A DNA stretch of 64,000 nt from Callorhinchus milii. Lineage: Eukaryota. A program made the position numbers and the translations under genes. The stretch's first letter is position 1, and each line of letters opens with the position of its first letter. Below are positions 58,490 to 62,499 of the stretch, one piece after another. Where the stretch lies: NCBI RefSeq assembly GCF_018977255.1, contig NW_024704744.1:36332001-36396000 (forward strand), read 5' to 3'. The notes under the pieces were generated by a model. It was not told the DNA's origin. It worked only from the letters and a program-made list of their open reading frames with translations, and did not search any database.

Positions 58490-58849
58490 GGAGTTCTATA
58501 GCTCAGTGGTTAGAGCACTTGCCTCGCAAGCGAGAGACCTGGGTTTGATTCCTGGCAGGGCGAAATGTTGGGCAAGTTTACTTACTCCACACGTCTCTGT
58601 TTACCAAGCAGTAAGTAGGAACCCGATTGTTAGTAGATTGGTGGATCACTTTTCTGAGGGTAATAACTCCTTAAAAAAAAATTAGTCACTTCAATCCGGG
58701 ACTGTTTGTGGGACACTACTGTGCGCAATTGGTTGCCGCGTTTCACCAATAAAATATACAGTCAATTCACTTTACAGTATATTCTGTGAAGCGCTTTGAT
58801 TCATCTCAAAGATGTGATAAGGCACTATATCAAATGCAAAGATTATTAT
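58490..58849 (+). mobile_element. tRNA-derived SINE, long subfamily, full length
   Basis: tagctcagtggttagagcacttgcctcgcaagcgagagacctgggtttgattcc plus body and tail. Confidence 0.92.
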
Positions 58850-59152: not shown

Positions 59153-60941
59153 TAAATTGCCTAGCCTTGGAGCGTTGGTTTATAACTGGGCTGCTTATAG
59201 CATTATCAGGTAAACTGTACGTTAAAGCTCATTTGTCATTAGGAAAAACAGTTTTGCTTGCAGAGCAATATTGGTTTCTAAAGGCTGAGTTTGATTTGAA
59301 TTCAGCTTGTCAACTTTCTTCCCAGTTGTGCAAACTTTTTTTCGATAGGATCACCTATTACTGTGACTGAAACTGAAAATCTTTATGTTTCTTATAGGCT
59401 TATAAGTTCTGCGTACCCTACTTTGTCTCCCCACCTTTGGTTTATCAGCTAACTGACTTTTTTCACTCAGTTTTGACATTTAGTCCAACGGTGCACAATG
59501 GAGAAGAAACCACGTTTTAAGAAGTAATCTTTTTAGAGGATTAGACTAAAGCTACTTTCGTGCCAAGATTTTCCTTTTAAATTGCTTGTCTGGGCTTCTA
59601 ATAAGATCCCTTGGCACTTATAATCCGTCTGGTATATCAACCTTTCAGAGGGCAGCATTGTCCGGATGAATGATCTGTTACCTGTTCAGTGGATTCTCAT
59701 GTACCTGCGAGCACTCAAATCCATACTTATTTCTTCATTTCTGCCTTTGTTAAAACACCACATTTTACTCGAAATCTGAATTAAATAGTGTTTAGCATTT
59801 CAGTGAAAATGCATTCAATTTCAAACAAAAACAACTGTGTCATTTCATTCAAGTGTAGTAACTTACTTCTCTTAGGTTTTATCATAAAGTAAGGTATTAG
59901 TGATAAGTAGTATCATTCCCTGAAAAGATTATATACCAGGTAGAGATAGTAGCTAATATTATGCATCCCATTAATGCCTCAATTTTGGCAGTAGATATGT
60001 GTAAAGGAGATATGTATAATGAAAATCTCCTGAGTTGTAATTCAGATCCCATGGGCGGGGTGTGTTGGGGGCTGACTTGATATCCTGTAAGTGACCAAGT
60101 CCCATAATTGTAAATTATTTTCAGCTCTAAGATTGTGATATGTACCCTATTCTATGGCTCTTTATGTGTTCCATTTATAGCACTTGATGGCAAATAAATA
60201 AAATTATAAGAACTGGATGCAATATGTTAAATTATCATCAAGTGAATGAATTGTGGTTTGGTTTGGTTTCATTCACTGTGTACCCTTTATATCTACGTAT
60301 CATTGTAATCTTCTGATAAAATTGGTCATTTGCATCATGGCTGTTTGTGGGACATTGCTGTGCACAAATTGGCTGCTGGGTTCACCTCCAAATACAGTGT
60401 GCAGAACTTTGAGATGTCCTTGCAAAGTGAAAGGTGCTATCTCAAATGTAAGGATTACTATTATTATATGTGATACAAAAACAATCTCAGGGAGGAGACA
60501 CAAATTACCTTTTTCTTTTATGGAATTTATATTTCAAAACCAAATATGGTAAACTTTCCCAGGAGCATGTTCTGTTTGGCAGGATATAAACTGTCAGCAT
60601 TTTCATACCTGTAGATTTTGCACTTCCAATGATCAAAAACAATTAATAACAATTTCACAAGAGAGGTTCACAGATGAAAAAAAGCCGGTCGACCCATTTG
60701 ATCTCATCCTTTCAGAATACCCACTCTTCCATCCAGAAGGTATCAATAACTCTTGCAAACGTCCTGGTGAGGAACGCAGCTCAGAAGGAAATGCGTAAGA
60801 GCATTGGCACCATCTTCCTGCCCACAGTTCAGCCACAAATACCCATCCATTAAGTAATGGTTCCACCAGTTGGAAGCATGTAGGTTGAGCAGCAGCTGCT
60901 TGCATCTCTGCCCACCAATCAAAGTGGATACCATGCCCTAG

Positions 60942-60942
<1 letters not shown>

Positions 60943-60973
<31 letters not shown>

Positions 60974-61190
60974 CCTTGTATTTGATACAGCACCTTATCA
61001 CGTTGTTGAGAGACATCTCAAAGAGCTTCACATAATATTCTGTAAAGTGTAGTAATTGTGTGTTTTTGTGGGCCAAACACGGCAGCCATTGTGCATAGCA
61101 GTGTCCACAAACAGTTGTGGATTGAGTGACCAAATTATTATTATTATTATTATTATTTTTTGGAAGGGATTATTTACCCCTCGGAAAAAG
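60943..61190 (-). mobile_element. 5'-truncated SINE with (ATT)n tail, downstream of the MFSD2A retrocopy
   Basis: (taa)n at 60943-60972, then the reverse-complement SINE body to gaagggattatttacccctcggaaaaag. Confidence 0.88.
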
Positions 61191-61354
61191 TATCAGTCAG
61201 GTTCATCTGTCAAGTTTTGATTGATGTCGTTGTAGGGATGTGGTGCATGGCAGATAGACAAGAAACATGTTAATTCCTGTTTGAGTCTTATACTCATACT
61301 GTCCACAACTCCTGAGCTCAGAATTGTAAACACGTAAACATCTTGACGTATATT

Positions 61355-61670
61355 CTACACTGCTGCCGAGTTTGTACAAGTTTGTTCCAGAATCTTACCC
61401 ATTGTCTCGTAAATCCTCCAAAGGCACTTTTCTGTTCTTCATCCACATCTCTTCGTCGATGAGGTAGGGTTTGAAGAGGATGACTCCGATGACGATGAGG
61501 AAAATGGGTGCTGGAGCGACCAGCATCTTCACTGTGAAGTGCACGGTGTTGGGCTGGGTGCAACCCCTGGTCAGGTAGCCTGCAAAGTCAAGGCTTGGAG
61601 TAGAGATTCTGAGGGAGATCCCAGAGGCAAACATGGTGAAGAAGACATCAAAAGAATAAAATATTGCTTC
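61355..61670 (-). pseudogene. MFSD2A: 5'-truncated processed pseudogene (retrocopy) of the LPC transporter MFSD2A, C-terminal ~105 codons
   Basis: The minus strand reads EAIFYSFDVFFTMFASGISLRISTPSLDFAGYLTRGCTQPNTVHFTVKMLVAPAPIFLIVIGVILFKPYLIDEEMWMKNRKVPLEDLRDNG*DSGTNLYKLGSSV. This matches the MFSD2A C-terminus as I recall it (IFFSFYVFFTKFASGVSLGISTLSLDFAGYQTRGCSQP...YPIDEERRRQNKKAL...SETDSTELASIL). There is an in-frame TAA at 61395-61397, substitutions at conserved sites, and no upstream homology. Confidence 0.85.
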
Positions 61671-62499
61671 TAATATGGAGCATCTAATCTCAGTATTTAA
61701 GTCTTTAAGATGTTGAGAGGAATAATTAATATAGATGTAAGTAAATCATTTAATGTAAATAATGATCACAGACCTATAGGACATGAATACAAAATTAACA
61801 AGATTCAAGCGTGATTTGAATGAAGATGTTTTCCCTACAGATTAATAGATATATCATATTAGCTTTAACAGTGGTTATGATGTGAAGTTAATGAATTCCA
61901 GTATAAAATAACACTGCATAAAAATGGGTTAGGATTAGAAAGATAAATATAGAGAAAGATTATCGAATACTGTGTGGAACCTAGCAGTTCCTGTGCTGTT
62001 AGAACTGTGGAAATGTTTTCAGTTCAGGGCTGAATCTTGTATGTTGTACTGTTTGACTGACACATTGAAGTTTTGCTGGATTGCCTTAGGGGATCAGAGA
62101 GAAAATTCAAAGACTTTGACTTCCTGGAGTTTTATCTGTGATCAGATCATCTCCCATGAAGAGATTCAATAGCAGAGTGCATGTAAGGTACACTGTACAT
62201 CATCCGTGCAAAGAATTGGCTTGATCAGCTACATGTCCTTTTCTCCATCATAATTTTCTTGTATTCCGATGTTCTGAGCATCCAGAGTAATGGAACTACT
62301 GACCTGTGGCAGATACAGTTCTATGTTCACTCCCAAGGCAACAAGATAAAAGTAGCCATTAAACGGATTATAGCTGGCTCTGCCAAATATACTTTACAAC
62401 CTCTTTCTCTGCATTATCACCTTTCAAATCACCCTAGGAGGAGGGGGCAAATAATCACAACAAGTTTAATTCTACAGAGAAAGAGGAAACAAAATTACA

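Follow-up and report, generated by a model that had tools for sequence, protein, structure and literature searches.

A dead processed MFSD2A pseudogene of the elephant shark, possibly copied by way of a SINE tail in the 3'UTR of its parent

The minus strand of positions 61670-61356 of the window (the whole stretch of 64,000 nt analysed here, from Callorhinchus milii, the elephant shark) encodes the C-terminus of MFSD2A, approximately its last 105 codons, in what we take, with a probability of about 0.97, to be a dead processed pseudogene. The introns of the parent gene are gone, the 5' end is truncated, the reading frame carries lesions, the junction of UTR and SINE is common to the copy and its parent, a second intronless copy is present in the genome, and the same insertion occupies the orthologous locus of two other species. 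The original prediction of a dead processed pseudogene, made from the letters alone, is borne out in its essentials, namely the lost introns, the 5' truncation, the stop and the changed residues. Its extent, given as 61355..61670, correctly located the pseudogene but took in less than half of the insertion, for it missed the 3'UTR and the SINE; we infer that the whole extends from 61670 through both of these to about 60942 (Table 1). The pseudogene itself is of an ordinary kind, and a dead copy changes nothing in biology; what would matter, and would be new, is copying by way of a SINE tail in the UTR.

By tblastn, the segment 61670-61356 matches residues 456-559 of the C. milii MFSD2A (P0002), its nearest full-length protein, with 81% identity (E 1e-44) and the same exon ends. 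The remaining seven of the eight tblastn matches of MFSD2A in the window have E above 2, and no other MFSD2A exon was found upstream in the approximately 2.3 kb that lie within it. The minus-strand read-through of the copy is EAIFYSFDVFFTMF...DLRDNG*DSGT, and the four solved structures that it matches are all of MFSD2A. This protein is sodium-dependent LPC symporter 1, an omega-3 lipid transporter (C. milii protein XP_007902454.1). An origin from MFSD2A rather than MFSD2B is indicated by the best match, a more distant paralogue-like contig aligning over only 50 nt. This paralogue, which we read as MFSD2B (X1 record 6, X14 record 17), matches 40 of the 50 letters on 61599-61648.

Table 1. Parts of the MFSD2A copy and of its surroundings (positions in the window)
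Feature	Position	Strand	Remarks
3' part of third-last MFSD2A coding exon	61588..61670	minus	truncation point 61670 mid-exon; Y>D, K>M (human K436), G>R, L>P
Second-last coding exon, whole	61408..61587	minus	parent contig X1 record 5, letters 48-224; intron-free joins on both sides
Last-exon coding part	61353..61407	minus	premature stop 61395-61397; native stop 61353-61355 lost
MFSD2A 3'UTR	61200..61352	minus	border with SINE approximate, ~61190-61205
5'-truncated SINE of tRNA-headed family, in mRNA sense	60942..61200	minus	L2-type 3' tail, (TAT)n at 60942-60973; proposed priming site
TATTA directly before 5' junction	61671..61675	minus	again at SINE tail end, 60943-60947; possible 5-nt target duplication, equivocal
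Old CR1 3'-end fragment	60654..60743	minus	~200 nt past SINE tail; taken as flanking sequence, alternative 3' end
AT-rich 5' flank	61671..62150	none	common to the orthologous locus of species B and C

The loss of introns was established from read contigs of four public runs, aligned to 61165-62150 at 80% likeness: X1 (DNA of the same species), X9 (species B), X10 (species C) and X14 (an RNA-type run). One X1 contig is the locus itself, free of differences, and as the possible source of the window lends no independent support; the parent lies on other contigs. The parent DNA contig of X1 aligns in two blocks, 61408-61587 and 61603-61670, with 291 letters between them, which after subtraction of 15 skipped exon letters gives a first intron of approximately 276 nt, and the parent of species B (X9) has the same exon end followed by a GT donor. 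The second intron shows as a break at 61408, where the alignments of the parent from X1 and from X9 (record 21) end, with 47 and 33 letters left unaligned; the parent protein model P0011 departs from the true sequence right after LEDLR, matching that exon end. The RNA-run contig (X14 record 15) runs over both junctions in one block, 61184-61617, with 58 other letters and 9 gaps. The search for the parental gene and the alignment across its last exons, proposed with the original prediction, thus found a parent and a copy colinear with its spliced mRNA; the introns that mammals have near SLD/FAGY and LR/DE, sites that are joined in the copy, both exist in the parent (SLD/F, LR/D), and the prediction, which a parent without them would have refuted, stands. 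It is hardly credible, then, that the locus arose by DNA-level duplication or is the end of a gene whose parent has no introns here. Nothing was found in favor of either, and parent DNA has both introns, the first with a measurable length and the second as an alignment break that two species share to the base, whereas the copy has neither. The second-last exon measures 177 nt in the parent and 180 in the copy, which bears a 3-nt in-frame insertion at 61424-61426.

The abrupt 5' start noticed originally is a truncation inside an exon, because past 61670 the parent DNA and RNA contigs stay coding and match P0002 while the window passes into a flank of 29% GC. A TAG before 61669 was considered as the splice acceptor of a real exon and rejected, being mid-exon in the parent.

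The five residue changes listed earlier (FYVFF to FDVFF, FFTKF to FFTMF, SLGIS to SLRIS, STLSL to STPSL and YPIDE to YLIDE) are all present against P0002 and 18 elasmobranch rows, and the in-frame stop, DNG*DSGT, is where it was said to be. The lysine of FFTK had been named as human K436 and as needed for LPC transport; it does align with K436 and is changed to M in the copy, and PMC10013850 names K436 as part of the sodium site. The copy is changed at 10 of the 72 columns that are invariant in C. milii and the 18 elasmobranch rows, which are not independent and include isoforms. Among elasmobranch-invariant columns the copy differs at 12 of 75 and the C. milii gene at 3 of 75 (Fisher p 0.027). 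Both counts exclude the partial rows P0016, P0022 and P0027, two C. milii models (P0008, P0011) and the two teleost rows. Residues 1-455, or four fifths of the protein, are missing together with promoter and start codon, and the Pfam MFS_2 match covers only profile positions 355-426 of 427. With these residues absent, a premature stop and the sodium-site lysine lost, all of which set it apart from the C. milii MFSD2A, the predicted product cannot work as a transporter.

The dN/dS value, another check proposed at the outset, sits less easily with decay. The pairwise ratio is 0.29 (12 non-synonymous changes over 148 sites and 10 synonymous over 41, in 63 scorable codons), a partial estimate from 22 changes without transition correction that draws on 40 of 116 difference rows; it lies below the roughly 0.5 expected for a neutral copy compared with a constrained parent, and is not decisive alone. 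As we read the contigs and the alignment, 11 of these 12 non-synonymous changes arose in the lineage of the copy, which gives it a dN of 0.078, close to the 0.076 that is half of the divergence of the flank from species C.

The low ratio, together with a frame that is open for 92 codons before the premature stop and has no frameshift, might be taken to mean that the locus is a live intronless or chimeric gene, in which a SINE-derived exon is spliced to the MFSD2A piece. UniRef indeed holds for it a C. milii entry of 127 aa, A0A4W3H1B8 (P0028, 'uncharacterized'), identical to the piece and mapping to the window, which confirms the elephant shark as host. However, this entry lacks a start methionine, and the stretch to which its first 31 residues map, 62615-62523, is a SINE piece, while the MFSD2A part has altered invariant residues, K436 of the sodium site among them (PMC10013850), and retains only the end of the Pfam profile; we therefore regard a live gene as very improbable, and A0A4W3H1B8 is probably an automatic mis-annotation that should be listed as a pseudogene. 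The model joins this SINE piece to 61685-61398 of the pseudogene, on the minus strand. No RNA data set was listed for 60700-62200, and none of the five contigs of the RNA-type run reached 90% likeness to the locus, which speaks neither for nor against expression.

A 596-nt contig of the same-species DNA (X1 record 3) aligns in one block, 61186-61423, across the second junction, and the exon goes on in the 30 letters that follow. It has neither the stop nor the insertion of the copy described here, and because it carries changes of its own, differs from the mRNA and crosses the junction without a break, it represents a second intronless copy of MFSD2A at another place in the genome. In the RNA-type run a similar contig (X14 record 16, 61186-61423) occurs at low depth, and could be a transcript or DNA carry-over. 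A further contig, X1 record 4, comprises 94 nt of the MFSD2A 3'UTR (61236-61329) and may be a third copy. In X1, contigs of 596 nt and 1004 nt point to two copies besides the one described here.

Beyond the coding end, X14 record 15 and X1 record 2 align over the 3'UTR part, the latter with 17 other letters and 6 gaps over 158 nt. The parent mRNA (X14 record 15), the parent DNA (X1 record 2) and the second copy (X1 record 3) all enter the SINE at 61184-61186, the SINE likeness of the loose ends of parent mRNA and second copy being judged by eye and that of the parent DNA being a loose end of equal length. As they enter it at the same place, the SINE lies in the 3'UTR of the parent, in sense orientation, about 155 nt after the stop. 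The parent is visible for only approximately 35-56 nt past 61184, its contigs ending at the A-rich middle of the SINE, where a high-copy repeat would halt contigs. The SINE differs by 13.2% from the in-window consensus (others by 10-21%), a divergence that makes it no younger than the copy, and its tail scores higher than every one of 200 shuffles when aligned to five of the seven L2-type ends that the window holds. It is presumably a CmiSINE; the C. milii SINEs are reported to share the tail of L2-2_CM and to lie in the 3'UTRs of 138 mRNAs (PMC5499810). The parent presumably holds the whole SINE tail, with the insertion ending there and an L2 element as the LINE that acted.

These features raise the possibility, which we favor by a modest degree over all others together, that the copy was made by an L2 LINE priming on the SINE tail inside the spliced MFSD2A mRNA. 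Since a sense SINE follows the stop by 155 nt, this mRNA would possess a handle for L2. The LINE protein would bind the SINE tail within it and, at an AT-rich target site that had been nicked, start reverse transcription from the (TAT)n repeat; approximately 730 nt would be copied towards the 5' end, past the UTR and across both exon junctions, before synthesis halted mid-exon. Without a promoter or a start codon, and with four fifths of the protein gone, the product would then have decayed. A product of 730 nt from tail to truncation point fits the route. [quoted passage not shown] Several observations nonetheless weigh against it. The parent can be followed for only a short way into the SINE, and the hairpin predicted in the tail is no stronger than in shuffles (z -0.12), though only one of the four tails tested stood out and the copy is old. 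The TATTA that precedes the 5' junction recurs not only at the SINE tail but also at 60648, the end of the CR1 piece, and at 61037, and its match is therefore not decisive between routes; any phase of the tail repeat is found at about 1% of positions.

Target-site duplications of the L1 type measure approximately 10-20 nt; none was found, for the end of the 5' flank recurs exactly further down over at most 6 nt, inside the SINE. An L1-type 3' poly(A) tail was likewise not found, as 60001-61356 on the minus strand holds no AATAAA, no ATTAAA and no A-run longer than 6, although an old tail could have decayed. These results bear on an ordinary retrocopy with a longer 3' end, in which the SINE would be a mere passenger of the UTR and priming would have occurred on poly(A) by an L1- or Tx1-type LINE, or on a CR1 tail near 60650. 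In its favor are the same-strand CR1 3' end (nhmmer E 1.4e-06, with a profile of six other in-window copies) and its TATTA, a short A-rich stretch near 60514, and the 14,081 retrocopies of cartilaginous fishes, which are ascribed to CR1 or Tx1 (10.64898/2026.06.26.734816). Set against the missing signal, A-run and flank repeat, and a CR1 piece that is short and some distance from the SINE tail, they leave this the strongest competitor, though an unlikely one. Priming on the A-rich stretch within the SINE (~61135-61160), or a switch of template in which synthesis passed from a free SINE RNA to the mRNA at the SINE sequence common to both, would agree with the end of all parent contigs at that stretch. 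The contig of the locus itself ends there too, however, although the window goes on, and the window stays in register with the SINE alignment up to the tail, so that we consider either event improbable.

The 5' flank, its junction with the copy and the end of the coding part are also present on contigs of two other species, B (X9 record 20) and C (X10 record 8). The flank differs in C at 51 of 370 positions (51 other letters, with 16 gaps, over 61655-62024) and in B at 16 of 144 (16 other letters, with 2 gaps, over 61655-61798); from junction to coding end both have 225 letters, the C. milii copy having 231 and 228 being expected from the parent. The 225 letters are a multiple of three, B has no premature stop, and the middle part falls below the 80% alignment. 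Being common to two other species the copy is old and, on these alignments, is to be placed before the split of species A (C. milii), B and C. The parental letter is still present in both B and C at 61382, 61387 and 61392 but in neither of them at 61368, which suggests an insertion shortly before that split. A rough rate of 1.0-1.1 per 1000 sites per million years (PMC5499810) would give an age of about 70 million years, which is a floor because only pieces of more than 80% likeness were compared. The shared insertion is usable as a phylogenetic marker.

Species B and C presumably represent other chimaera families. If so, the SINE family would be older than PMC5499810 dates it. That paper puts the modern chimaera radiation at approximately 167 million years ago and the SINE waves later, with a clock that it describes itself as rough, and in that case its dating would be hard to square with a SINE that precedes the split of A, B and C. 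This dating also counts against the SINE-tail route, as does the scope of the comparison with B and C, which is confined to flank, junction and coding end of the locus.

In its intronless, 5'-truncated, promoterless and decaying state, and in its origin from spliced mRNA including the 3'UTR, the copy resembles the processed pseudogenes made by LINEs (PMC5470649, PMC3747384), but it has no poly(A) and no long duplication of the L1 type, and seems to end in the L2-type tail of a SINE. With UnaL2 and UnaSINE of the eel (PMC1636434), ZfL2 of the zebrafish (PMC4176376) and CmiSINE and L2-2_CM (PMC5499810) it has in common the shared 3' tail, the short terminal repeat and the sense of the copied RNA; but where stringent L2 elements mobilise a Pol III SINE transcript, the RNA copied here came from Pol II and carried coding exons. 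In print, tail-driven mobilisation in trans has been shown for engineered constructs. The snoRNA-RTE chimeras of the platypus (Schmitz et al. 2008, cited in PMC5499810) are likewise host RNAs that gained a LINE-type tail and were copied repeatedly, but there a small RNA became an element of 40,000 copies, whereas here a protein-coding mRNA has left two or three dead copies. No report of a natural mRNA copied through a SINE tail in its UTR was found in listings and abstracts, which miss closed journals, and none of an MFSD2A pseudogene among the 20 listed of 67 matches.

It is conceivable, at about even odds in our estimate, that a sense SINE in the 3'UTR licenses a whole mRNA for repeated copying by L2 in chimaeras, and has done so since before the modern lineages split. 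Selectivity for the tail is considered to limit retrocopies, and tail-specific LINEs such as L2 and CR1 to be inefficient at producing them (PMC5470649), yet retrocopies are common in cartilaginous fishes (10.64898/2026.06.26.734816); a SINE serving as a handle in the 3'UTR would, if true, reconcile the two and may explain part of these many retrocopies. The route would also provide a genome-wide test, in the comparison of sense with antisense UTR SINEs.

The island richer in GC and CpG that drew attention to the locus is real but modest: its GC content is 47.6% against 38.2% for the window, with 8 CpG (o/e 0.45), and among 1261 other stretches of 315 nt, 6.0% have a GC value and 6.6% a CpG value at least as high. 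A true CpG island was considered and rejected. No further genes were found among the 8 other long ORFs scanned with Pfam (9 of the 62 ORFs of at least 90 aa were scanned in all). The four Rfam tRNA hits, at 58492, 51923, 23647 and 8235, are all SINE heads and not tRNA genes. Two types of SINE are visible in the alignment, with and without an internal segment of approximately 60 nt, and about 18% of the window consists of repeats found within itself (SINE, L2 and CR1 pieces).
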